Shown: positions 1,086 through 14,847 of the stretch, one piece after another | Layout of the letters: each line of letters starts with the position of its first letter | How positions within the stretch are numbered: the first letter of the stretch is position 1 | Assembly (NCBI GenBank): GCA_038889235.1 | Contig: JAWAHN010000003.1 | Coordinates: forward strand, 83,703 to 115,702 | Origin: Candidatus Jordarchaeales archaeon | Lineage (GTDB): Archaea; Asgardarchaeota; Jordiarchaeia; Jordiarchaeales; Freyrarchaeaceae | Length of the DNA: 32,000 nt | Direction of reading: 5' to 3' | The notes under the pieces: model-generated | The model's database searches: none | Told to the model about the DNA's origin: nothing | The model's input: only the letters and a program-made list of their open reading frames with translations | Translations under genes and position numbers: made by a program

Positions 1086-2288
1086 TCAGAAGGGTGAACT
1101 CGACCGCTGAAGGACGAACTCACAGTAGTCATCACCCTTAGCCACACACTTCTCCTCCCTAGAAGTGAATGGAGGCTCCCCCTTGGTCTCAGCAAAGTGG
1201 TTTAGGATTCCCTCCACGATCCACCCGTAAGTGCAAATTGGACGCTTAGCCAGCCTCCTTCTTGCAATGTAGCTTCTGGCGACCTCCGCGTAGATAGACT
1301 GGTACACCCTGAAGACCACCTCGGACTCTTCGAACTTTATCAACTCACTCTTCCCCCAACCCATGGAGGATGTTGAGGAAAGAAAGAAGTTCACCACTTT
1401 TTCAACGCCGTGTTTCTCACCCTGCTTTGCGAGCAAACGACCATAGCCCACGTGTGCCTTCATGTAAGCCGCGTACACAACTCCACCGAACAACTCGACG
1501 GGAACCAGCATTTGAGCAATAGAATACATTCCTCCTTCAACCATCAGTATTCTTTCCCTCCCAATGCCAACAGTACCGTCACTTCTCATCTCCAGCTTGT
1601 TAAGGAATTTCCAGATATCCCCGCACTCCTCAGAAGAAGGGGCTTGGACAGCAGCTGGCTCGTACTTGTTGCGGGCTAAGTATGTAAGCTCTTCCTCTAT
1701 ACCTTTGAAGGGGTCCTCCTTGTCGCATGCGGGCTCAATATAGAACTCACAATAATCGTCTCCGAGAGCGAAGCACTTTTCCGAGTAATATGTGAGCGGT
1801 GGGGCGCTACGGCCGCTTTTCTCCAACGCCGCTCTGACTGCTCCAACCCAGTTGTAACCCCACCACGGGCAACTGAAGAACGGAAACACAGCTTTAACAT
1901 TTCTAATATTTCTCTTAAACCAGCACGACACAGCTGAATTGTATATCCTCACGATGACCCTAGGCTTTTCAATGTCGGCCTCAACAATTTCAGTCTTACC
2001 CCGCCCTCCAACGGTGTAAAGCCACGCGTATTTTTCAAGCGCCTCCTCCGGAGAGTAGCCCTCGTCCATCAGCATGCTCACTGTGGTAAACCCTGGGATC
2101 ACTTGGAAGCGGAAGAAGTAATCTTTTGCCAGGAAGCCTAACGTGCTCATAATATCTTTGTAGAGCATTCCAGGTATTACTTCAGCTATGAAAGCGCAGC
2201 GTAGGTTCTTCCAGTAAATCCTCCACCTTTCGACGCGAATATCACTTATGAAGTCCTCAAGAGCGCTTCTCTGCTTTGTTTCGGGCAT
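1086..2288 (-). CDS. Tandem double V4R (XylR-N/4-vinyl reductase-like) domain protein, paralog 1
   Basis: Two internal repeats, each ending in a V4R Cys motif (EKCFALGDDYCEF; EEKCVAKGDDYCEF), plus the SMGWG motif. The ORF track starts at TTG 2324; ATG 2288 gives about 400 aa, matching its paralog. Confidence 0.82.
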   Translation of the reverse strand: MPETKQRSALEDFISDIRVERWRIYWKNLRCAFIAEVIPGMLYKDIMSTLGFLAKDYFFRFQVIPGFTTVSMLMDEGYSPEEALEKYAWLYTVGGRGKTEIVEADIEKPRVIVRIYNSAVSCWFKRNIRNVKAVFPFFSCPWWGYNWVGAVRAALEKSGRSAPPLTYYSEKCFALGDDYCEFYIEPACDKEDPFKGIEEELTYLARNKYEPAAVQAPSSEECGDIWKFLNKLEMRSDGTVGIGRERILMVEGGMYSIAQMLVPVELFGGVVYAAYMKAHVGYGRLLAKQGEKHGVEKVVNFFLSSTSSMGWGKSELIKFEESEVVFRVYQSIYAEVARSYIARRRLAKRPICTYGWIVEGILNHFAETKGEPPFTSREEKCVAKGDDYCEFVLQRSSSPF

Positions 2289-2470
2289 TGTTTCATCACA
2301 CTTGCCGTTTGATGGACATTTCAAATTATATTCACGCGTCTAATTAATCTTTCCCAATCATAACATGTGTTATTAGCAAGTTTTGTATAAAAAAGTTGTA
2401 AAAATCGTGATTGTGCCGCGCTCAGGTGGAGACATTAACGATGTAAACGATTGGCGGTCGGTTTTCTTTG

Positions 2471-3673
2471 TCATAGCTTTGATTTCTCCAATATGAACTC
2501 GCAGAACTTGTCGCCTTTTGCTACACATTTTTCCTCTCTCGCTGTGAAGGGCGGCTCCCCCTCTTTTTCGGCGAAGTAGTTTAGGACCCCCTCCACTATG
2601 TAGCCCATTGGGGCACAGGAGGGTTGGGGGTTGAGCCCTTTGAGCTTTATGTACGCTCCACACTCTTCACCGTAAAGCGGCTGGTGCATTACGATCTTTA
2701 CTTCTTGCCCGTCGACCTTTGTTGTTTTCATGTAACCCCACCCCATAGACGATGCTGAATTCAAGAAGAAGTTTAGCACGTTCTCTGCCCCGTACTTTTC
2801 ACCTTGCCTTGAGAGGTATTTTCCGTACTCGTTGTTTGCCCTTCTGTAAACGGCGTATATCATGTCCCCGAATTTTTCGAGCGGCAGCATCCAGTAAGCA
2901 ATGGAGAAGAGCATGCTAGGTGTTAGGAGTGTTCTGTCGCCTCCTATGCCCACAGTTCCATCCTCTTTAACATCTAGAAGGCTGAGGAAGCCTTTAATGG
3001 CCTCCTCAGGGCTTCCGGGCGCCTGCCCCCCGTTTACGGCTGCCTTAACGTTTTCGTAGTTGAAAAACTCTCTCAGCATGTTGGACTCGAACAAGCGTAA
3101 ACTTTCATCTTCCCCCTGTGTTATAACCCACTCGCAATATTTCCCCCCTTTAGCGAGGCACTCCGTTTCTTCGTAAACAAGGGGAGGCGTGCTCATCCCT
3201 TTCTCCATCATGGCTGCTCTGAACGCCCCGATCCAGCCGTAACCCCACCACGCGCAGTCATAAAAGGGAAAAACCTTTTCCAGGTTTTCCACGTTATCCC
3301 TAAACCACGAAGCGATACTTGAATTGTAGGTCCTCACTACCATTTCGGGCTTTTCGAAGTCGACGCTAACCACCTCGGTGAACCCCCACCCGGCTGCACT
3401 GACGAAGCTAGCGAAGCTTTCAAGCGCCTCCTCGGGAGGCAACCCTCCTTTCACGATTTTGCTCACCTCTGCGAAACATGAAAGGGCAGTGAACTGTAAG
3501 ATGACGCTTTTAAGCGAAGGCCCGAGGACCTTCATCAGCTCCCTCGTAACCCGCATGAGTAGCTCACGCGAAATGAAAGCGTACCTCATCCCGCCGTAAA
3601 TTATTCTCCACCCGTCAAAACCTAAACGAGACTTGAAATCGCTGAGAGCGCGTTTCACTTCTTCAGCAAACAA
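2471..3673 (-). CDS. Tandem double V4R domain protein, paralog 2
   Basis: 400 aa with AAGWG...ETECLAKGGKYCEW in the first half and SMGWG...EEKCVAKGDKFCEF in the second. It is collinear with the 1086..2288 protein (shared VFPF.C.WWGY.W.GA.RAA and EGEPPFT.REEKCVAKGD). Confidence 0.85.
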   Translation of the reverse strand: MFAEEVKRALSDFKSRLGFDGWRIIYGGMRYAFISRELLMRVTRELMKVLGPSLKSVILQFTALSCFAEVSKIVKGGLPPEEALESFASFVSAAGWGFTEVVSVDFEKPEMVVRTYNSSIASWFRDNVENLEKVFPFYDCAWWGYGWIGAFRAAMMEKGMSTPPLVYEETECLAKGGKYCEWVITQGEDESLRLFESNMLREFFNYENVKAAVNGGQAPGSPEEAIKGFLSLLDVKEDGTVGIGGDRTLLTPSMLFSIAYWMLPLEKFGDMIYAVYRRANNEYGKYLSRQGEKYGAENVLNFFLNSASSMGWGYMKTTKVDGQEVKIVMHQPLYGEECGAYIKLKGLNPQPSCAPMGYIVEGVLNYFAEKEGEPPFTAREEKCVAKGDKFCEFILEKSKL

Positions 3674-3805: not shown

Positions 3806-5725
3806 TTAACTTATACTGCCTTTAACAATTGCGTGAATTTTCTCTGGGTCTACTTCTGGTAGCCTCACATAGCGTGCCTGAGCGTGTTTCACTATTGTTT
3901 CTATGTAGCTCGGCTTCCAGTAGTTGGTGCGCGTGTCGACGACTATGGTTGTTGCTCCAATCCTCCTGAGGTTTTCCGAGAGTCTTTCCAGCTCCGCCCG
4001 CACTCCCAACCTCCAGTCTAGGGGTACGTTAGCCTGCCCATCTGTTATGATTAGCACGATCGGTTTAAGCTCGCTTCTGGAAAGCTTCTCCCTCTTAATA
4101 AGCTCTAACGCCTTGAGCATTGCTGAGGAAAGCGGAGTCTTTCCCCCCGTGGGAAGGCTCTTTAGGAGGCTTGCAGCTGCGTCGAGGTTTGAAGTCGGCG
4201 GAAGCACAACTTGCGCTTCCCTTCCTCTGAAAGCCACGAAGGCAACCCTATCCCTGTTAATGTAAGCGTCCCTTAGAAGGGAGAGCGCCACCCCCTTAGC
4301 TGCCTCCATTCTCCTTAGAGCCGCCATGGAGCCGCTTGCGTCGACAATTAACACCACGAGTGCTGGAGCCCTAGCGAACCTAACTTTCTCCCTAAGGTCT
4401 TCAGGCTTAATAACCAATCTACCCTCCCTCCACCCTCCCCTGGCAGCTGCAGCCCTTATTGTGGCGTCGAGAGCTATGTCCCTGGTTTTACCTCGTGGGA
4501 TGGTGCTCGCCACGTAAGCTCCCCGACCATTGCTCGACTTAACCCTCAGCCTTCTTCCGCACCTTACGGTGCAGTTCGCCTTCTCGTCAAATTCGAAGCT
4601 TAGGTGGTAGGAGGGGTCTGCCTCGAAAACCTTCTCACCCATAAGCTCCCCCTCGCTACCATTCCCCTCTCTAACTTCACCTGGCGACTCCCTAGCCTTC
4701 TCAAGCAGCTCCCTGACTTGCTGCATGTCTAAGCGCGGCTGCTCGAAGGGGTGCCTCCTCATCCTGTGCGGGAGAGCTAGGCTCATGGCTTCCTCGACGT
4801 CTCGCTCGCTCACAGTTGTGCGGCCCTCGAACGCCGCTATGGTCTTAGCTGTCTTGACCACTGTTATCTCAGCTCTACTGCTCGTCCTTAAGCTGGCGCA
4901 CACGCTGGCCACGGCAAGCAGTAATTCGTCGCTCATCGTAACGCTTGGAAGCGTCTCCATAGCTCTGGCAATCTTAGCTTTGAGCCCCTCCTGCTCTTCC
5001 CTGTACTTCTCTATGAACGCTAACGGGTCATTCTCGAACTCCTCAACTCTCCTCACAATCTCAGCTCTAAGACGGGGGTCGTCGAGCCCCCCGACCTCAA
5101 CCTGGAGGCCAAACCTGTCGAGAAGCTGCGGCCTCAGCTCACCTTCCTCGGGGTTCATCGTGCCGATGAGAATGAACTTCGCCGGGTGCGAGACCGAGAC
5201 CCCCTCCCGCTCCACGACGTTGACACCGCTCGCGGCGGCGTCCAGCAGCACGTCGGCGACATAGTCGTCGAGGAGGTTGACCTCATCCACGTAGAGTATC
5301 CCCCTGTTGGCTTCAGCCAGCAATCCTGGCTCCAGCGCCTTAAGCCCCTCCTTCATCGCCCTCTCTATGTCAAGGGACCCTGCAACTCTGTCGACTGTGG
5401 CGTTTAGGGGGAGGTCCACGATCCTAACCTTCCTCTTGACATGGGGGAGCACCCCCTCCTTTTCAAACCGTTCGAAGCAGTTGTCGCACATCTCCGCCGG
5501 GTTACGCGGGTTACAGTTGAACGGGCACCCGTCCACAACTTCTATCTCCGGGAGGAGCTCGGCCAGCCCCCTGACAGCCGTAGACTTACCTGTCCCCTTC
5601 TCGCCTCTTATCAGCACCCCGCCTATCCTGGGATTTATGGCGTTCAGTATCAGCGCCTTCTTCATCGACTCTTGGCCCACGATCGCCGAGAAGGGGTAGG
5701 TGACGCGCCTCACGTGGTGGGGCAT
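3806..5725 (-). CDS. chlD: Class I chelatase ATPase subunit, ChlI/ChlD-type AAA+ fused to vWA domain
   Basis: [10 protein letters not shown], Walker A GEKGTGKS, Walker [36 protein letters not shown], then vWA MIDAS VDASGSM, GKTPL and ITDG. The ORF track starts at GTG 5734; ATG 5725 follows a GGTG SD. Confidence 0.92.
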
Positions 5726-5755
5726 GGAAACCACCGCTTATACACGACAACACAT

Positions 5756-5784
5756 TATTAAAAAATTTTTTCAAAGTATTACCA
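5756..5784 (-). promoter_or_regulatory. chlD promoter: TGGTAATACTTT-N10-TTTAATA (upstream motif plus TATA box)
   Basis: Plus strand TATTAAA at 5756-5762 and AAAGTATTACCA at 5773-5784. The same arrangement occurs upstream of cobN. Confidence 0.6.
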
Positions 5785-5883
5785 TCACTCGGCGTCCAAG
5801 CACCCCAATGGCCTTAACGTGGCGGCGACTGCGAAAATGTTTTAACGTTTTTTGGCTTAAAGGACCCTTTTGGAGGGATTTAC

Positions 5884-6741
5884 TTGTGTGACTTTTGCAG
5901 GAAGCACGCTGAGAAGTACGGCAAATGGTACCTTAACCCGAAAGGCTACTCCGAGGAACTCTTCTACAAGCTAACCATCCTAGACCGAATCCTCAACAGG
6001 AAACCTTTAAGGGAGAGGGTCATGTGGAAGTATTCGGACGCCGCGTGGTACCCCCTCTTCCTATCGAAAACGCTGGACACCGTTGACCTAGCCGCGAAGC
6101 CAATCATAGGCGGGCTAATAAGAGTAATAGGAAACGTTATCGCTGTTAGGGAGCACGCGGGGCAGGTTGTCCCTTTGGAGGACGCCTACAAGATAGTGGA
6201 GCTAAGCGAGGGGCAAGCCCTCTTCCCGTGCATGTGCAAGCGCCTCTTTAAAGGGGATGACGAGTACAAGTGCCTGAACTTCACCCCCGCACCGGAGATA
6301 GCTGAGAAGCATCCTCGAGGGTGGCGGGTTAAGTGGCTCGACAAGGAGGAGGCGAAAGAGAAACTTGAAGAGTTCTCCGAAAAAGGTTATGTTCACGCGG
6401 TCTTCTGGTGGTATGGTTTACCCCAGGTTATATGCATCTGCAACTGTGATGTCAAGTACTGCTACGCGGCCCGCCCCCGCCTGTGGTATGGTATAAGGAA
6501 AGCGTACGTTAAGGCCGAGTACGTTGCCGAGGTCGACCCGGACAGGTGTAGCGGGGACATTCCCAGGTGTGGCGACTGCGTGGCGAGGTGCCAGTTTGGC
6601 GCGATCACGCTTACGAGCGGAGCGGCAAAAATTGACGTTTACAAGTGCTTCGGGTGTGGGCAGTGCAGGTTTGGGTGTGAGGAGAATGCCATAAAGCTCG
6701 TCGATAGGAACGAACACCCGGTGGCTAGGAGGTTGTGGTAG
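5884..6741 (+). CDS. Fe-S protein: Cys-rich N-terminal domain plus C-terminal 2x[4Fe-4S] ferredoxin domain
   Basis: MCDFC, FPCMCK, CICNCDVKYC, followed by CSGDIPRCGDCVARCQFGAI and CFGCGQCRFGCEENAI. Confidence 0.82.
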   Translation: MCDFCRKHAEKYGKWYLNPKGYSEELFYKLTILDRILNRKPLRERVMWKYSDAAWYPLFLSKTLDTVDLAAKPIIGGLIRVIGNVIAVREHAGQVVPLEDAYKIVELSEGQALFPCMCKRLFKGDDEYKCLNFTPAPEIAEKHPRGWRVKWLDKEEAKEKLEEFSEKGYVHAVFWWYGLPQVICICNCDVKYCYAARPRLWYGIRKAYVKAEYVAEVDPDRCSGDIPRCGDCVARCQFGAITLTSGAAKIDVYKCFGCGQCRFGCEENAIKLVDRNEHPVARRLW

Positions 6742-6742
6742 C

Positions 6743-7006
6743 TTGGTTAAGTTCGTGTACGACGCGGAGAAGTGTATTCTTCCACACGACCCGGAGAAGC
6801 TCCGCCCCACCGTCTGCCTCAAGTGCATTGAAGCGTGTCCCAAGTCGCTCCTAATGTTCAGGCCGCTCAGGGAGGAAGGGGCCGACGGCTCCCCCGTGAG
6901 GTATGAAATATACCTGACTTTTAGGAGCCAGGCGAGCAAGTACTGTCCAGGCTGCCTCAAGTGCGTCGAAGTATGCCCGAAGAAAGCGATACAGATTAAG
7001 AAGTAA
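6743..7006 (+). CDS. Small 2x[4Fe-4S] dicluster ferredoxin
   Basis: C-(12)-CLKCIEACP with an inserted loop, and CPGCLKCVEVCPKKAI. It starts 1 nt after the previous stop, consistent with an operon. Confidence 0.85.
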   Translation: MVKFVYDAEKCILPHDPEKLRPTVCLKCIEACPKSLLMFRPLREEGADGSPVRYEIYLTFRSQASKYCPGCLKCVEVCPKKAIQIKK

Positions 7007-7019
7007 GGGTTAGAAGTGT

Positions 7020-10000
7020 TCAGTCTTCTTCAAGCATAGACTCCGTTGCAGCGTACTCGTCCTCCAAGCGTCTAAGTGTTTCCTTGTCAGCCTTCCAGTA
7101 GCCTCTTTTGTTCGCTTCTAGGAGGCGGCTGACCGTCTTCATGAATGCCCACGGGTTTTCTTTCCTCATCTTTTCTCTCCTCTCATCGTTGAGGACTATG
7201 TTCTGCGCGGCGAGGTTCCACATCCAGTCCTCTACACCGCCTAACGTGGCGGCTATCCCGAGCAGGTACTCCACCCTGTCCGCTATCTTGGCCGCCCCTG
7301 TGAACCCTGACTCGAGCATGGAGTCGAGCCACTTCGGGTTCGTCAGCCTGGTTACGACCCCTCTCCTCACAGCTTCCTCCGCCCTCTCCACTTTAACTTT
7401 CTCCCTTGTCGTGTCTGCTACCAAGACCATGGGTTTCTCACCTTTGGCCTCCTCAACAGCCTTGGTCAGCCCGCCTAGGAACTCGTAGTAGTGGTCTAGG
7501 TCTGTTATCTCGTAGTCCACAGTGTCCCTCACCTGTGTGACCACGTCGACTCTTGATAGCAACCTTCTGAACTCGTCTTCAGCCTCCACGCTCCTGTAAC
7601 CGTCGCCGTACGCGTACCTCATGCTGTCAACATAAGCTCTAACAAGGTCCGCTTCGCTTCTCCAAGACGAGGACTCAACCATGCTCGTCATCGACGTGGC
7701 GTACTCGCCTTCAGGTGGGCCGAATATTCTGTAAAGTGGACCGGTCTTCAAGTTCGCCTTAACAAAGTTCTGCTCCTCAGTCTCGTCGAGCGACGCAACT
7801 CTCCTGAAAGCCTGGTCAAGTAGCTCAACAATGTTATAGAACGTATCCCTGAGTATGCCGCAAATGGTGACGACTACATCTATCCTCGGCCTTCCGAGCT
7901 CCTCCACCGGGATTACTTCGATGTCCCTAACGTAAATGCTCTTCCAGACGGGCTTAACCCCTAGCAGTCTGAATACTGCTGCCAGCGTTTCGCCGCCGGT
8001 CTTCATCGTTTCGAAAGCCCATAGGACTACGCTGACTGCTCTAGGCCACCTCCCATGCTTCCTGTAGTAGTTTGCCACGTACTCCTCCGCTATCCTCGAC
8101 CCCCTCTCCCAGGCAGTTTCGGACGGGATGTTCGTCGGGTCAAGCTGGTACGTATTCCTACCAGTCGGGTAAACCTCGGGGCTCCTGACAGGGTCTCCTC
8201 CGGGTCCAGGTTCGACGAACTTCCCCTCTAAGGCATCGAGCACCGCCTCTATCTCCCTTGACGAGTCCACTCTCTCCGCCACCTCCTTCAAGTAAGCTAT
8301 TTCTCCGCTCACATGGGCCGGGGACTTCTCGCCTTCAAGCACGTATCGCTTTATGAGACTGCGCACCTCTCCTTCAACTTTCTCGAGCAGCTCGGCGTAC
8401 GTTTCACCGTTAACCTTCAAGTGGGGCTTTTCCAAGGCTTCGTCATAACTCAACCCTTTAGCCTCCATGAGCACCCTGTGCAGGCTCCTAATCTTCCCCC
8501 TGTCATACCTGGCAACATAGGTTAGGTAGTCCAGCTTCTCCTCTTCTCCCATTCTCTCGCCGAGCACGTGTAGTCCTCTAGGTATAAGACTCCTCTTGTA
8601 CTCCATGAGGGCGTCATACACCTCCTCGACTCCGCCGGTGAAGCCGTACTTTCCAGCCTCCTCCAAAACCTTTCTCTTAGCTTCCTCAGCTCTCTCTCCT
8701 CCGAATTGAGCCGCGTCGAAGTACTGCAGGATGAGCCTCTCAAGCTTGGAGAAGTCGCCGTGCAGCCCACTCGAGGACACGGGCGGCGCCCCATGGTTGA
8801 CTATCACCGCGTAGCTCCTTCTCTTAGCTATCGAGGCCTCCGAGGAGTTTACGATATCGTACACGTAGACGTTCGGCAAGTCGGCTATCATTATGTCGGG
8901 GAAGCATTTACCCGAAAGTCCAACCTCCTTACCTGGGAGAAACTCGAGTGTTCCATGCGTTCCAACGTGGACAACCACGTCCGCGCCGAAGACGTTCCTC
9001 AACCAGTAGTAGAAGGCAAGGTACTGGTGGTGGGGTGGAATATCCCTCCCATGATACTGTTTCCCAGCCTTCTCGTGAACCCCCCTTGAGGGCTGCACTC
9101 CGATGAAGACGTTTCCAAGCAAGACCCCCGGCACGAGAAGGCGGCCCCCGTAAACCATTATGTCTCCTGGAGGCGGCCCCCACCGTTCAAGCACTATTTT
9201 CCTAGCCTCCTCCGGCAGCCTAGAGAACCATTTAACGTAGTCTTCAAGGGGAACATTGGGCAACTTGGCCGCCCTTTCGGGTGTTAGAACCCACTCCCCC
9301 GAGTTTACTGCTCCGCTCTCGAGGAGGAGCCTTTTGAGGTCCTCCCCGCTCTTCAGTTGAGCCCCAACTTTGAAGCCTTTCCTCTCCATAGCTTTGAGTA
9401 GCCGCACGGTGCTCTCCAGAGTGTTGAGGTACGAGGCTTTCCCCAAGTTTTCTTCTCCTGGAGGATAATCGTAGAGCACTATCGCGACTTTCTTATCACT
9501 GTTGGGCTTCGTTCTGAGGCTGATCCACCGGGCGGCTCTACCTGCAATCCTTTCAACCCTGTCCTCTACTGGAACATACTCGTCGACGATGACACCCTTA
9601 AATTTCCCCTTCACGGGCCCTACTAGGGGTATGGGCTCGCACCTTCCATCCAGCTCTGGGAGTATGACCGTTGTCACCGTTTCCACGGGTGGAACCCCGT
9701 CTCTCGACTCCAGCCACTCCTCGACGCTTCTAGACGAAAGGAGTATGCCGTGGAGGAGTGGTACATTTAGGCGTCTGAGGACCTCAAGTGCCTCCCTGTG
9801 GTCTCCGCCTATAGGTCCGCCCGCCAGCCTGAACCATAGCAGGTCGACGACGCACTCGACTACGGGCTTCCCATCCTTGAAGAAGAATCGCTCTAAGCCA
9901 AGGTGATATCTGAGGTCTGAGGAGAATAACGGGACGACGCCCAGCCCCTTCGCCTCGAGCTTCTCAGCCAACATTTTTGCTGCGGGGAGAGTTTGGTCGT

Positions 10001-10709
10001 AGTGGTAGCCGCCATAGTGGTATATGCCGACGAGCCTCCTGTCAGCGTACCTGTACTCTGAAAGGTATTCTTCGAGCGAGCCGTAAATCCTCCCAGTTGA
10101 GAAGTCTTGGATCGCCATGCTCGGCATGGTCACCGGAGGCGCTGGATCCTTCACCTTGACCCCACAGTACTCCTTCAGCAGGAGGAGGAACATGTTATAG
10201 TAGTTTTCCTCGGACGGGTGATCGTAGTACTTTAATGTTAGAGCGTAGTTCCTGGCGTGTCTCATCATTCCGAAGGGGAGTGCCTTTCCAAGCTTCTCGA
10301 ACCTCTCCTGCATCCTCCTGATCTGGGCGTAGTTAACTGTCCCCTTGAAGAACCTCCTTATGAAGGGCTTTTCCCTCATAGAGGAGAACCTTGAAAGAGA
10401 GAAGCTCCCCATACGGGTTAGGTTTATGAGCTCCCTTGACCCGCCGACGAGGCAAACAACGGTGTTTTTCGAGTCTCTTAGAGCCTGCACCGTAAGGGGG
10501 ACGGCTTTGTCTCCTCCTCTCAGATCGAGGAGCACCACGTCAGCCAACCGGAGTGCTTCAACGTACTCCTCGGCTTTCACAGCCCCGCTGTCGACGTCGT
10601 AGGACTTGAAGAACTCGAAGTCGAAGTTTCCAACCTCTTTCCTGACTCTCTCAGCGGCCGACACCAAGCTTGGGCGCAGCTGGTATCCAACCATAACGAT
10701 CCTGGCCAT
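7020..10709 (-). CDS. cobN: Class I chelatase large subunit, CobN/BchH(ChlH) family
   Basis: About 1230 aa with family motifs LPELDG, KVAIVLYDYPPG, WGPPPG, GNVFIGVQPSRG, HQYLAFY, HVGTHGTLEFLPGKEVGLS, KRRSYA, PGPGGDPVRSPEVYPTGRN, GILRDTF, DLDHYYEFLGG and TRLTNPKW. The ORF track starts at GTG 10718; ATG 10709 follows GGTG. Confidence 0.95.
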   Translation of the reverse strand: MARIVMVGYQLRPSLVSAAERVRKEVGNFDFEFFKSYDVDSGAVKAEEYVEALRLADVVLLDLRGGDKAVPLTVQALRDSKNTVVCLVGGSRELINLTRMGSFSLSRFSSMREKPFIRRFFKGTVNYAQIRRMQERFEKLGKALPFGMMRHARNYALTLKYYDHPSEENYYNMFLLLLKEYCGVKVKDPAPPVTMPSMAIQDFSTGRIYGSLEEYLSEYRYADRRLVGIYHYGGYHYDQTLPAAKMLAEKLEAKGLGVVPLFSSDLRYHLGLERFFFKDGKPVVECVVDLLWFRLAGGPIGGDHREALEVLRRLNVPLLHGILLSSRSVEEWLESRDGVPPVETVTTVILPELDGRCEPIPLVGPVKGKFKGVIVDEYVPVEDRVERIAGRAARWISLRTKPNSDKKVAIVLYDYPPGEENLGKASYLNTLESTVRLLKAMERKGFKVGAQLKSGEDLKRLLLESGAVNSGEWVLTPERAAKLPNVPLEDYVKWFSRLPEEARKIVLERWGPPPGDIMVYGGRLLVPGVLLGNVFIGVQPSRGVHEKAGKQYHGRDIPPHHQYLAFYYWLRNVFGADVVVHVGTHGTLEFLPGKEVGLSGKCFPDIMIADLPNVYVYDIVNSSEASIAKRRSYAVIVNHGAPPVSSSGLHGDFSKLERLILQYFDAAQFGGERAEEAKRKVLEEAGKYGFTGGVEEVYDALMEYKRSLIPRGLHVLGERMGEEEKLDYLTYVARYDRGKIRSLHRVLMEAKGLSYDEALEKPHLKVNGETYAELLEKVEGEVRSLIKRYVLEGEKSPAHVSGEIAYLKEVAERVDSSREIEAVLDALEGKFVEPGPGGDPVRSPEVYPTGRNTYQLDPTNIPSETAWERGSRIAEEYVANYYRKHGRWPRAVSVVLWAFETMKTGGETLAAVFRLLGVKPVWKSIYVRDIEVIPVEELGRPRIDVVVTICGILRDTFYNIVELLDQAFRRVASLDETEEQNFVKANLKTGPLYRIFGPPEGEYATSMTSMVESSSWRSEADLVRAYVDSMRYAYGDGYRSVEAEDEFRRLLSRVDVVTQVRDTVDYEITDLDHYYEFLGGLTKAVEEAKGEKPMVLVADTTREKVKVERAEEAVRRGVVTRLTNPKWLDSMLESGFTGAAKIADRVEYLLGIAATLGGVEDWMWNLAAQNIVLNDERREKMRKENPWAFMKTVSRLLEANKRGYWKADKETLRRLEDEYAATESMLEED

Positions 10710-10840: not shown

Positions 10841-11266
10841 CTACTTTAGCAGCAAAACAGCCCCGTGAAACCTCGTCCCCCTGGTCTTAGCCTCCAGTTT
10901 TTCATCACACGTCAGGAGTTTCCCTCCAACCTTCTCAGCTAAAGCTAAGAAAAGCCCGTCGTAGACGGGGAGGGACAGCTCAAGTCCTATGTTTAGAGCA
11001 TCTTCGTAGAGCTCACGAGAATCCACTTTGATACACGCTTCACTTATAAACCGGACAGCCTCCCTCAGCAGTTTTTTAACCGTTTCAGCGTCGTCTCCGA
11101 AAAACCTTATCCTCTTCCACGCCACGTTCGCCACTTCTGCGACGGCTAGCTCCAACGTGTACAGCACCCCAAATTTGAACACCTCTTTTTCCGCCATCTC
11201 GGAGCACGGGTCGCTGAAGAACAGGGCAGCTATAACGCTGGAGTCGAGAACAGCGACGTCAATCAC
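10841..11266 (-). CDS. vapC: PIN-domain toxin (VapC family)
   Basis: VLDSSVIAALFF...ELAVAEVANVAW...YDGLFLALAE...LLTCDEKL contains the PIN acidic residues. Its start overlaps the stop of the upstream small gene. Confidence 0.9.
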   Translation of the reverse strand: MIDVAVLDSSVIAALFFSDPCSEMAEKEVFKFGVLYTLELAVAEVANVAWKRIRFFGDDAETVKKLLREAVRFISEACIKVDSRELYEDALNIGLELSLPVYDGLFLALAEKVGGKLLTCDEKLEAKTRGTRFHGAVLLLK

Positions 11267-11487
11267 CGGGACCTATCCTCCCTTATCAACTCAGCTGAGC
11301 CAACTCTCTTGGTCCTATCTCTGAGCGGTTTCACTCCTTCAACCAGTAATCTCGCCTTCTCGGCTCTAACCCTACACTCTATGAACGATCTAACCTCTTC
11401 CTGCCAGTTTACGGGAAGCTTCTTCATGTCCTCCTTAAGCTTCTTCGGAATTCTAACACTAAAAGTTTCGGAGCCCAAAAACGACAC
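11263..11487 (-). CDS. vapB: Ribbon-helix-helix type antitoxin (VapB)
   Basis: 74 aa, ETFSVRIPKKLKEDM...VNWQEEVRSFIE, ending LIREDRSR. It sits directly upstream of and overlaps the PIN gene. Confidence 0.82.
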   Translation of the reverse strand: MSFLGSETFSVRIPKKLKEDMKKLPVNWQEEVRSFIECRVRAEKARLLVEGVKPLRDRTKRVGSAELIREDRSR

Positions 11488-11520
11488 CGCAAAACAAGTA
11501 TGTAAACAAAAATATAAACT

Positions 11521-11946
11521 TTATTCGAACACCTGACTAATTAATTTGCTGACGATTTTGTAAACATACTCGGCTTTTCGAACGGCGTCCTCAGCATCCT
11601 CCCGGTAGTAAAGTTCATCGGGTGGCACCCCGGTCTCTTCGTCGCCATACATAGAGGGTTCCCTCTCTCTACGAAGAATCCTAGAGTACCTCGAGAGGAC
11701 TCCTATCTCCGCCTGGAACCACTCTGGAAACCTGGAAGACTCCCTTCTCAGTACAGGGCCAACGTCATGCCACTTCGGCGGCTCAACGCCGACAAACCTT
11801 AACGCCGCTTTCAAGAGGAGCTCCACAGCCTCCTGGCACTGCCTCACAACGTACGGGTAGTTCCCCCTTTCAAGTGTCTCTTTCGCGTGGTGTATCCTCT
11901 CCTCCGCCTGCCTGAGGTACGACTTAGCCATCGAAGTGTTCTTCAT
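11521..11946 (-). CDS. HEPN-domain protein (MNT-HEPN toxin-antitoxin pair)
   Basis: AKSYLRQAEERI...CQEAVELLLKAAL...EPPKWHDVG...EDAEDAVRKAE. ATG 11946 overlaps the MNT stop as ATGA; the ORF track extends to 11997. Confidence 0.88.
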   Translation of the reverse strand: MKNTSMAKSYLRQAEERIHHAKETLERGNYPYVVRQCQEAVELLLKAALRFVGVEPPKWHDVGPVLRRESSRFPEWFQAEIGVLSRYSRILRREREPSMYGDEETGVPPDELYYREDAEDAVRKAEYVYKIVSKLISQVFE

Positions 11947-12431
11947 ATCTCTATCACGTCCCCGAACTTGTAATCCTTTTTGAGCCTCCAATACCAAGCT
12001 TTCCCGAGCCTAACCCTCTCAGCTCCAAGCTCCTGCAACCTCTCTCTCAACCTCCTTAGAATCCCATCGAAAAACCCATCCCTGTCAAAGAGTACGACCG
12101 CATCTTCAACCATGTCTAAATATAAGGGAGAAAAAACGCGTGCCTCCTCCGGCGTCTTAATAATGGGAGAAAACTCCACGTGGTAACCCATTTCCTCAAG
12201 CTCATCCAACTTCTCACCAAGTTTTTCCTCAACCTCCATAAATAACTCCTGCCTTCTAAAAGCACTCTTAGGCGCCCCCCTGAGAACTATAAGCAGGTCC
12301 ACGTCACTATCCTTCCTAGCCTCCCCTCTCGCAACAGAGCCGTAAACAACAACAGACACGAGGTCCTCCCCAAATTTTTCAAGCAGCCTCTCAACAAGCG
12401 ACGAAAGCAACTTTTCATAAGGCCACCTCAA
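11943..12431 (-). CDS. Minimal nucleotidyltransferase (MNT), partner of HEPN
   Basis: VVVYGSVARGEARKDSDVDLLIV is the Pol-beta GS-x-DxD motif. Likely start is TTG 12431 after GGAGG; the ORF track starts at 12482. Confidence 0.9.
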   Translation of the reverse strand: MRWPYEKLLSSLVERLLEKFGEDLVSVVVYGSVARGEARKDSDVDLLIVLRGAPKSAFRRQELFMEVEEKLGEKLDELEEMGYHVEFSPIIKTPEEARVFSPLYLDMVEDAVVLFDRDGFFDGILRRLRERLQELGAERVRLGKAWYWRLKKDYKFGDVIEI

Positions 12432-12751
12432 CCTCCACGCACACAACCCCGCCCCCCAAATTTCTCCGATACCACTCTCCACACCACATCACCCTAAACC
12501 ACTCACCAACAAATGAAAAGCAAGAATTTAAATTAAATCTTTTTAAATTCCTCAACAATTAAACCAAGAAAGCTCCTTCTAACGTCTCCATCTAAAACCT
12601 CTTTTTTACGTCAAACCAAAAACAAGTAATCAGAAACAAAACATTGGAAGCAAAAGTCCCACAATGGGGGTTGAAAAGTGTTGAATCACTCAAAACAATG
12701 TTGCAAAGCGCGTACTCAGGCCGTGCCCCACTATTGTTACGTTACGCTCAT

Positions 12752-13393
12752 TCATCCCGCACTAAGCTTAAAGGTACTTCCCAGAAGCCTGATCGTTGAA
12801 TCCACTTTCTTCCTCAACTCTATCCTGGCTGCCCTTATAGCCTCTCTGACGGATAACTTGTGTTTCGAAACCTCCGCCGCGATGCAGTTAGCCAACTCAC
12901 TCTCAACAACCTCCTTTCCACTAGAGTAGTTTATCACCATACTGATGAACTTGTCTCTCATAACTCCCTAAAGTGGAAGACTAGGAACCCATCGGTAATC
13001 TCTCGGCAAACCTTTCGATGCCTTGCACGCTACGATAACCGAGCACAACCTCCCCCCTTTTTTGCAAATCCTATCCGTTTGCTTTCCATTAATGTAAACA
13101 GGGAGGCTCAGGACCCCTTCGGGTCGTCTATCTTATCGATCTCGCCTACCAATAAGAACCTTTTCCCCTTCTCAAAAGTTTCCTCGTCCCAGCATTACTA
13201 ATCGTCCCACTTTGCAAGCCCAGCGCCCAGAGTCCTCTTAACCCAATCAAGAAAACGACTTAGCTATCCTAGGCAGGCCAACGAGCAACACGTTGAACGG
13301 CTCACCGGGCAACACTCCTCTTCACGAACGCCTTCAAGCTGTCGAGCCCCCTTCTACCACGTCAAACAAGCCCTCTGGCACGTTGCCTTCCAA
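12752..13393 (-). pseudogene. Decayed small AAA+ ATPase (MCM/MoxR-like clade) with multiple frameshifts and stops
   Basis: Stitched minus-strand fragments read PEGLFDVVEG / LDSLKAFVKRSV / EPFNVLLVGLPRIAKSF (Walker A remnant, ~13300-13255) / RFLLVGEIDKIDDPKGS*ASLFTLMESKRIGFAKKG (Walker B region, ~13160-13055) / VIVAC / FLVFHFRE / RDKFISMVINY...LSVREAIRAAR (lid; ORF 12752..12961). It may extend further 5'. Confidence 0.68.
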
Positions 13394-13737
13394 ACGGCAC
13401 GCTATAGAATAGGTGAACGTCTCGATAGCGCCAGCCCCTGCCGACGAGACCCCAATACTTACACCCGTGACTAAGAACTATTAACTTGAAGGGGGGCTTC
13501 GTGGCGGTTTCTACTTGTTCTTTGAAGGTCTATTGACGACTTAAACAGCCGCCACATACCCCCTAGTTAGTAACGCCTTGTTTGAAATAAGTGATAATAT
13601 ACTATGAATCGGAAGTTGCTGTTGCTCTGGGTTAAAGCGTAGTCGGTGGGTTGCATGGAGTGAGTCGTGGGGAGTGTTCGTGTAGTTGACTGGGAAACTG
13701 GTTGCTCCGCGCCGGATCCAAGGATGTTGTATGGCTT

Positions 13738-14847
13738 TTATGGGTAAGCTTTTGAGCCTATGAATTCTTCCAGAATCTTCGCGGCGGTGGGGCTTTCGGT
13801 TATAACTTCTAGTTCCTGGTAACCGTAGCCTCTCGAGTAAAGTATGTACCTCACCAGAGACTCCCTCGTCTCCTGGTGTTTAATGTACGTCTCAGTAGCT
13901 TTTCCCAGTTTAAACCTTCCAAGCCTAATGTCCTTTACTCCTCCAACTGAGAGGATTCTCCTCAATAGCTTTCTCGCACCCTCGTCCGGTATATCTCTTA
14001 GTGGGAGAATTTTCGCGGCCTTAACTTTCCAAAGGTTACCATGTTCCCCAGCTTTGACGGCATCCCTGCCCAGAATGAGTGCAATCTTCTTAACATCACC
14101 CGAGCTGAAAGCCCTGTAAACAAGCCATCCTGCCGGCGAGAGCATACAGAGGTCTCTCTCCACCCGCTCCAGTAGCGCCCAGAAGTACTTTAAGTCTTCT
14201 CCAAACCTATTCTTGACCTCATCGTACGGCCTAGGCGATTCAATGAGCCACTTTATGTCGTCCAAGTGTTTGATCCAGACGTCAGGGTTAAAGAAGAGCG
14301 GAATTGCAGGGAGGGAGACTATCTCGTTAAACCGCTCATGAATATAGTATACGTCCACCCCGTATAGGAGCGCTGCAATGGTCGCGTAAGCCGTCTCAGC
14401 CTTAAACCCCCCAGTAGCAGCAAGCACAACACCTCCCTCCAGCCTTCGCCCCTCCTCGAATACTTCAACAAGCATGTTTATGAGACTGTTAAGACCGGTC
14501 GTGGAGAACTTTCGCTCGTCATACTTAAGCCCCTTCACCTCTTTGACGCTCACATTGTAACCCCTATCCTCGTAAAACCTCTTTAAAGCTTCAGCGCACA
14601 CCTTCCCCTCAACGGTCTCGGAGTGAAGGAGGACTAGGGTGTCTCCATACTCAAGGATCCTCTCAAGCGTGTTTGTCTCCGCACAAGCCCTGTGAAGCCA
14701 CTGCTCATCTTTCTCGCCCTTAAGGTAGCCAACCAATGCGTCAACAGTACTTTTTTCGTTGCTCAACAACACCTCCTGCCGGACGCCGACATCCCTACAG
14801 TAGTTCGAGAGGAGAGAGGCGCCAACAGTAACCACCACGCGCCTCAA
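13738..14847 (-). CDS. APE2256-family (CARF7) CRISPR-ancillary protein: CARF, then wHTH, then DUF2103-like C-terminal domain
   Basis: N-terminal VVTVGASLLSN, LLHSETVEGKVCAEAL and LAATGGFKAE...YYIHERF are APE2256/CARF7 hallmarks. The wHTH-like segment ends in LSPAGWLVY. The C-terminal ~105 aa resemble DUF2103 by eye. The CARF call is firm; the C-terminal call is tentative. Confidence 0.85.
   Translation of the reverse strand: MRRVVVTVGASLLSNYCRDVGVRQEVLLSNEKSTVDALVGYLKGEKDEQWLHRACAETNTLERILEYGDTLVLLHSETVEGKVCAEALKRFYEDRGYNVSVKEVKGLKYDERKFSTTGLNSLINMLVEVFEEGRRLEGGVVLAATGGFKAETAYATIAALLYGVDVYYIHERFNEIVSLPAIPLFFNPDVWIKHLDDIKWLIESPRPYDEVKNRFGEDLKYFWALLERVERDLCMLSPAGWLVYRAFSSGDVKKIALILGRDAVKAGEHGNLWKVKAAKILPLRDIPDEGARKLLRRILSVGGVKDIRLGRFKLGKATETYIKHQETRESLVRYILYSRGYGYQELEVITESPTAAKILEEFIGSKAYP

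Follow-up and report, generated by a model that had tools for sequence, protein, structure and literature searches.

We describe here a chelatase locus in the genome of a Candidatus Jordarchaeales archaeon, an Asgard archaeon of hot springs (G000 in our numbering; a 95%-complete assembly of 2.14 Mb), lying on a 32,000-nucleotide stretch of contig C3 (positions 83703-115702) that was analysed at its full length and that we call the window. Two genes of class I chelatase type, chlID and cobN, stand on the minus strand on either side of two plus-strand genes for iron-sulfur (Fe-S) proteins, FeS285 and Fd87, and each chelatase gene is preceded by a predicted operator of NikR type. The listing of open reading frames and the family scans give the order chlID(-), FeS285(+), Fd87(+), cobN(-), the order and strands already set down in the first-pass annotation of this DNA:

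3806-5725, minus strand: chlID, a fused ChlI (AAA+)-ChlD (VWA/MIDAS) motor subunit of 639 amino acids
5755-5782: predicted NikR-type operator at the chlID promoter, from the dyad scan of the genome
5884-6741, plus strand: FeS285, a 285-residue Fe-S protein with a Cys-rich N-domain and a C-terminal 2x[4Fe-4S] ferredoxin domain
6743-7006, plus strand: Fd87, a small 87-residue 2x[4Fe-4S] ferredoxin with Fer4_7 and Fer4 matches
7020-10709, minus strand: cobN, a CobN/ChlH-like large chelatase subunit of 1229 amino acids, PF02514
10743-10770: predicted NikR-type operator at the cobN promoter, from the dyad scan, with architecture and spacing as at chlID

The reading of this locus as cobN with chlI and chlD holds as far as the chelatase genes are real, but the I and D parts are fused in one protein, and the genome showed no chlI gene apart from it. 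Similarly, chlID and the Fe-S operon do diverge from a common spacer of 158 nucleotides (5726-5883), as had been noted, but the predicted operator within it belongs to chlID and not to the Fe-S operon. Both Fe-S genes begin with TTG after a ribosome-binding site of the GGAGG type.

The two chelatase genes appear to encode a working enzyme. ChlID matches the Pfam families Mg_chelatase, AAA_lid_2 and VWA_2, the NCBIfam model TIGR02442 (743 bits) and ChlI in the Protein Data Bank (381 bits), and its translation retains Walker A (GEKGTGKST), Walker B (ILYVDE), the arginine finger and the MIDAS motif (DASGS). CobN, present as a single copy in the genome, covers positions 2-1090 of the 1090 in the PF02514 profile (1153 bits) and, among solved structures, scores 587 bits against ChlH, 567 against M. 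tuberculosis CobN and 362 against HmuS. Three ChlH residues reported to be essential, H621, E625 and E660 (PMC13297055), have their equivalents in H585, E589 and E624 of the window's CobN, which are invariant across an alignment of 31 sequences. With a full-length large subunit, an AAA+ motor joined to VWA/MIDAS, and the catalytic residues all in place, cobN and chlID together supply every part of a class I (ATP-driven) machine of the chelatase family, which appears to be active. Among curated models, the window's CobN passes BchH of magnesium chelatase, TIGR02025 (918.6, cut-off 829), misses CobN, TIGR02257 (731.8, cut-off 822.05), and falls far below the cut-offs of all NF CobN models.

The genome offers no obvious substrate for such an enzyme. 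No cob, cbi or bch gene was found among the proteins of the window, as the first-pass annotation had stated, and in the 95%-complete assembly as a whole there is no match to ALAD/HemB, CbiX or the alpha subunit of methyl-coenzyme M reductase (MCR), and a single match to TP_methylase. No home-made tetrapyrrole substrate and no F430-dependent enzyme is therefore evident, and if the organism makes no tetrapyrrole the chelatase must act on an imported substrate. The same condition is common among relatives, with HemB absent from 16 of the 18 CobN-positive Asgard genomes in a sample of 61; the CobN proteins of the two HemB-bearing exceptions, G012 and G023, group with CobN from cob clusters, and their genes stand beside a Peripla_BP_2/FecCD importer. 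In a tree with few references (two BchH, five CobN and one Hmu-like protein from Runella, leaving out true HmuS and the methanogen paralogs), the window's CobN falls within an archaeal clade with support of 100, apart from the BchH, cob-cluster CobN and Hmu-like references. A split with support of 99 sets six CobN-type rows apart, and both BchH references group in a clade by themselves (support 100). The context of a BchH is likewise lacking, with no HemB in the genome, no bch genes in the window and a position outside the BchH clade. The idea that this is not a routine chelatase, which the first-pass annotation had put forward, is thus borne out by the lack of tetrapyrrole synthesis and the placement of CobN outside the cob-cluster clade; we see neither a canonical CobN nor a complete late-insertion pathway.

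Other cobN types were seen alongside this clade. A second Asgard type, of ~31% identity, stands in an operon with a Peripla_BP_2/FecCD/ABC importer (loci L013 and L009, genomes G034 and G012), and in G012 hemB lies on the same contig as cobN, which may there encode a true cobaltochelatase. Metagenome-assembled genomes of Desulfurococcaceae (loci L041, L045 and L049) hold cobN homologs of 50% identity with no chlID within the fetched flanks, and one of these genomes has two cobN copies on different contigs.

The evidence for what regulates the locus comes from its promoters. A 12-mer, TGGTAATACTTT, occurs four times in the 2.14 Mb genome, against about 0.26 expected by our own calculation, and three of the four copies lie at promoters, those of chlID, cobN and an energy-coupling factor (ECF) transporter operon. 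Scanning the genome for the dyad GTAWTAC-N14-GTAWTAC, we found perfect copies before cbiM/nikMNQO and before a class I S-adenosylmethionine (SAM) methyltransferase gene, a copy with one mismatch before the ECF operon, and copies with two mismatches each before chlID and cobN. At chlID the distal half, GTATTAC (5776-5782), is perfect and the proximal half (5755-5761) overlaps an A/T-rich TATA-like box; at cobN a degenerate proximal half likewise overlaps the TATA-like box. The chlID architecture is repeated before the chlID genes of G002 and G003 and before the unlinked chlID of G004; we label the Jordarchaeaceae as family f1, with G000-G003 as genus g1 and G004 as genus g2. In other Jordarchaeales, in Baldrarchaeota and at further Asgard loci the dyad precedes cobN or the first gene of the operon. 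The regions upstream of cobN at the Bathyarchaeia, Korarchaeia, Terraquivivens and Desulfurococcaceae loci gave no such dyad; at one locus of Thermoproteales (L048) a single perfect half-site is present there.

NikR type-2 operators, which Rodionov et al. reportedly described in 2006 as GTGTTAC-N13/14-GTAACAC, resemble this element: both are dyads of 7-mers with a 14-nucleotide spacer, placed before nikMNQO, and the dyad in G016 reads GTAATAA-N14-GTGTTAC. The core differs, being GTAWTAC here. The genome holds two nikR genes, at C1:472789-473016 and C1:186895-187113, and its nickel enzymes include acetyl-CoA synthase (ACS) and the large subunit of a [NiFe]-hydrogenase. With an operator like that of the predicted nickel importer lying over each promoter and nikR present, chlID and cobN are predicted members of the NikR regulon. 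A comparative-genomics paper names nickel transporters and Ni-Fe hydrogenase as targets of NikR, with no chelatase gene in its list (PMC2667541).

One of the perfect dyads, GTATTAC-N14-GTAATAC at C2:208413-208440 of G000 (L021:5414-5441), stands immediately upstream of a gene for a 294-residue methyltransferase (Methyltransf_11/UbiE-like), and this class I SAM methyltransferase is, by its promoter, a further candidate for the nickel regulon. We considered whether it is kin to a methyltransferase linked to cobN in Deinococcus and found no specific similarity.

An association of cobN with nickel genes recurs in other organisms. In two Promethearchaeota loci nikM adjoins chlID-cobN, in a Nezhaarchaeales locus a CobN fragment adjoins nikMNQO-like genes, and in Methanodesulfokora hycI lies directly upstream of cobN. 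Further afield, an operon on plasmid pDFI1 of Deinococcus ficus (L095) joins a NicO-type nickel transporter, cobN, a methyltransferase and a chlID-like gene, and on pRUNSL01 of Runella slithyformis (L098) a TonB receptor, HupE/UreJ, ExbB, DUF2149 and a CobN-like gene lie inside hypFCDE. Nickel-linked relatives of CobN may be widespread. Around the cobN-chlID core of the clade, the loci compared revealed no conserved neighbour. A further parallel is proteomic: in Methanothermobacter marburgensis, CobN1 and NikR1 are produced only under nickel limitation (PMC12350162).

The Fe-S pair has a different distribution from the chelatase. Asgard genomes were searched with FeS285 and PF02514, first 61 and then 400 of them, and 16 loci were fetched. 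The pair lies beside cobN only in the Jordarchaeaceae (G000-G004). In G002 PIN and Csx1 genes also sit between the ferredoxin gene and cobN. In G004 a thioesterase gene and another gene lie in the 1.3 kb that separates the pair from cobN, and chlID with its operator is on a different contig from the Fe-S pair, which has no operator. Eight other Asgard genomes have cobN directly beside chlID and no Fe-S gene close by, and among 63 cobN loci from GTDB species genomes FeS285 and Fd87 were present in the four Jordarchaeia loci only; the chelatase genes are contiguous in loci of Bathyarchaeia, Korarchaeia, Methanodesulfokora, Terraquivivens, Thermoproteales, Baldrarchaeota and Promethearchaeota. 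Seen from the other side, FeS285 orthologs (at least 59% identity) occur in 17 Asgard genomes, beside cobN in five, all Jordarchaeaceae, with cobN on another contig in six and no cobN seen in the remaining six. The co-occurrence of FeS285 with CobN and ChlD that the first-pass annotation proposed to look for accordingly fails. What is constant is the pair itself: Fd87 directly follows the FeS285 ortholog in 12 of 12 loci checked, and the other neighbours vary, being Amidohydro_2 and a major facilitator superfamily transporter in the sister family and unrelated genes in Promethearchaeota genera. The family numbers 4-12 paralogs per Asgard genome, and in the window's genome four paralogs were checked and have mutually unrelated neighbours. 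A neighbour scan of the orthologs and these four paralogs found no constant enzymatic partner. The predicted operator was not seen at the Fe-S promoters of G004, G007 and G008. In our reading, which rests on gene neighbourhoods and promoters, FeS285 and Fd87 would be a free-standing two-gene module and not part of the chelatase system.

As proteins, FeS285 and Fd87 each combine two motifs of CxxCxxCxxxC type with a ferredoxin fold, as expected of 2x[4Fe-4S] proteins. The family matches of FeS285 are to Fer4 families only and cover residues 217-277; the preceding N-domain of ~205 residues has eight Cys conserved in an alignment of 71 sequences (C2, C5, C116, C118, C130, C186, C188 and C193), and matches no Pfam family across the 71 members. 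The protein atlas returned only generic Fer4 clusters for FeS285. An AlphaFold2 model built from the 71 sequences (pLDDT 90; a model from 13 sequences, at pLDDT 55.8, was too poor) matches solved folds, by Foldseek and VIA-align, at residues 211-285 only, the ferredoxin domain, for which the best structural match is 5c4i_B (Z 9.7, root-mean-square deviation 1.5 A over 67 residues). By its predicted features FeS285 is an electron carrier with several clusters, whose N-terminal domain is undescribed. In the Jordarchaeaceae orthologs an insert of 4 residues lengthens the first cluster motif, CSGDIPRCGDCVARC (6544-6590, residues 222-236), to Cx6CxxCxxxC. The remaining orthologs have CxxCxxCxxxC, and the insert is found exactly in the lineage in which the pair lies beside the chelatase.

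Two further features of the neighbourhood deserve mention. Directly downstream of chlID and on the same strand are two tandem genes for V4R-V4R proteins of 412 and 400 residues, 1086-3673(-), a pair kept beside chlID in G001 and G003 and partly in G002, and absent at the unlinked chlID of G004. V4R is the domain of BchJ, which reportedly carries porphyrin and binds BchH, and the V4R-V4R proteins may be better candidates for chelatase partners than the Fe-S pair. On the other side, cobN is flanked by PIN, HEPN plus nucleotidyltransferase, and Csx1-like (Cas_APE2256) genes (10841-14847 in the window, 8284-10244 in L008), which mark the cobN region as a rearrangement hot spot.

Taking these lines together, we favour two independent units at this locus, a class I chelatase or dechelatase induced by nickel starvation and acting on an imported substrate, and an unrelated Fe-S module; we would give this reading a probability of roughly 45%. 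An ancestral single cobN-chlID operon would have been split in the Jordarchaeaceae ancestor by the self-contained Fe-S module, inserted in opposite orientation at a rearrangement-prone spot that has also collected PIN, HEPN-nucleotidyltransferase and Csx1 cassettes. Nickel-loaded NikR would shut off chlID and cobN at operators overlapping their promoters, and a shortage of nickel would turn both on together with the nikMNQO importer. The chelatase would then work on an imported substrate, its most likely job being the ATP-driven handling of a nickel complex of tetrapyrrole type; F430 or its breakdown products would be candidates, the reaction would be a dechelation, and the nickel won would serve [NiFe]-hydrogenase and CODH/ACS. 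The gene content, the intact motifs, the lack of the pathway genes searched for (HemB, CbiX and MCR, with one TP_methylase), the synteny and the conserved operators are observed in the sequences; in this scheme we infer NikR binding, the response to nickel, which substrate is used and which way the reaction runs.

Comparison with known systems helps to place such an enzyme. The CobN-ChlID and BchHID/ChlHID systems likewise combine a PF02514 subunit, an AAA+ ChlI and a VWA/MIDAS ChlD with the catalytic His and Glu residues, and the window's CobN shares the ChlH-like signature motifs LEFLPGK and SSEASIAKRR. Unlike them, the window's system has no tetrapyrrole pathway, belongs to a separate and well-supported archaeal clade, has a fused I-D protein with a seemingly active AAA+ module in place of a separate ChlI, and carries a nickel-type operator instead of a B12 or bch context. 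HmuS of the Bacteroidota offers a second comparison, being a protein of the CobN family in a host unable to make tetrapyrrole, where it harvests metal from an imported one (PMC12583661). HmuS, however, is anchored in the membrane, works with NADH and independently of ATP, and has a hmuYRSTUV context (PMC12583661), whereas the window has the ChlID motor, no hmu genes, TonB receptor or ExbB-like HmuT/U, and signals of nickel rather than iron; its CobN is also much less similar to HmuS than to ChlH. M. marburgensis CobN1 is an archaeal CobN outside the cob cluster whose production under nickel limitation matches the regulation predicted here (PMC12350162). M. marburgensis differs from the window's host in making tetrapyrroles and F430.

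Several observations weigh against the reading that we favour. We know of no nickel dechelatase in the CobN family. The sole proven dechelatase of that family, HmuS, needs a reductant and not ATP (PMC12583661). The promoter-proximal half-site, with its two mismatches and A/T-rich sequence, could be a mere TATA box. Profile hidden Markov models do not settle whether the importer is nikMNQO or cbiMNQO, and we favour nickel, since free cobalt has no evident use in an organism without corrin. The ECF importer with the shared operator is present in 3 of 18 CobN-positive genomes and absent from the three genomes of the same genus; we dropped it as an obligatory substrate importer on that co-occurrence, and it cannot be the general substrate route. 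Transcript data add little, with no reads for the locus in three raw-read hot-spring metatranscriptomes, and Fe-S and cobN fragments in one contig-only metatranscriptome that cannot show regulation. Finally, three rearrangements in two genera have not carried the Fe-S pair further than 3 kb from cobN, so that a recent local functional tie between the Jordarchaeaceae pair and the chelatase is conceivable.

Of the alternatives, the one that survives best, though we think it unlikely, is that the enzyme works in the direction of insertion, as a high-affinity, ATP-driven chelatase that loads scarce nickel or cobalt into an imported metal-free macrocycle, either a corrinoid or a precursor of sirohydrochlorin type. 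Induction at low metal, as for methanogen CobN1 (PMC12350162), would suit a high-affinity insertase. All characterised members of the family that depend on ChlID or CobST insert metal, and the catalytic residues and motor are intact in the window. Methanodesulfokora, Bathyarchaeia and Nezhaarchaeales, lineages known to use MCR and F430, are among the nearest relatives, but without MCR there is no use for F430 here and the genome holds no precursor synthesis. Metal-free macrocycles are, moreover, rare in nature, and a route for free cobalt has no obvious use when corrin synthesis is absent.

Rather less probable is the proposal of the first-pass annotation, that CobN-ChlID chelates or dechelates reductively, with FeS285 and Fd87 as dedicated partners that supply the low-potential electrons. 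Five genomes from two genera of Jordarchaeaceae do have the pair by the chelatase genes, the insert in the first cluster motif of FeS285 is specific to that lineage, Fe-S and cobN fragments turned up in one metatranscriptome, and dechelation of the HmuS type needs reduction of the metal (PMC12583661). The pair is, however, absent from all other cobN loci examined, its orthologs occur in genomes with cobN elsewhere or not found, it lies on the opposite strand under its own promoter with no operator, and FeS285 belongs to a many-membered family whose checked paralogs keep unrelated company. With adjacency confined to one family, the role in electron supply is not supported.

A bolder combination of the two ideas strikes us as slightly more doubtful still: that across Asgard and TACK archaea, and perhaps in methanogens through CobN1, a reversed class I chelatase would act as an ATP-driven 'nickel pirate', stripping the metal from scavenged nickel tetrapyrroles such as F430 in nickel starvation, and that in Jordarchaeaceae the inserted Fe-S pair would have been enlisted as a reductant of the bound Ni(II) macrocycle, so as to labilise its metal. 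Very improbable, and already largely refuted, is an ordinary late-insertion B12 cobaltochelatase or Mg-chelatase that merely lies apart from its pathway genes, since the passing score with the BchH model and the match of ChlID to TIGR02442, a 'putative cobaltochelatase' family, stand against a genome with no HemB, CbiX or corrin methyltransferases, a CobN below the cut-off of its own model and set apart in the tree from both cob-cluster CobN and BchH, and an organism that is a non-phototrophic anaerobe.

The two-unit reading bears on a question that the field has itself acknowledged. The role of archaeal CobN, ChlH and HmuS homologs has been stated to be unclear (PMC12583661), and what such proteins do outside B12 and chlorophyll synthesis is a problem that this locus narrows. 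In archaea that are auxotrophic for tetrapyrrole we find an intact enzyme under a predicted operator common to a nickel importer, in agreement with the methanogen proteomics (PMC12350162), and these three together yield a testable hypothesis, in which nickel starvation would induce the handling of an imported metal macrocycle. An attractive but misleading clue is also removed, in that experiments should not be planned around the Fe-S genes, and the locus gives a defined DNA site at which binding of NikR could be tested.

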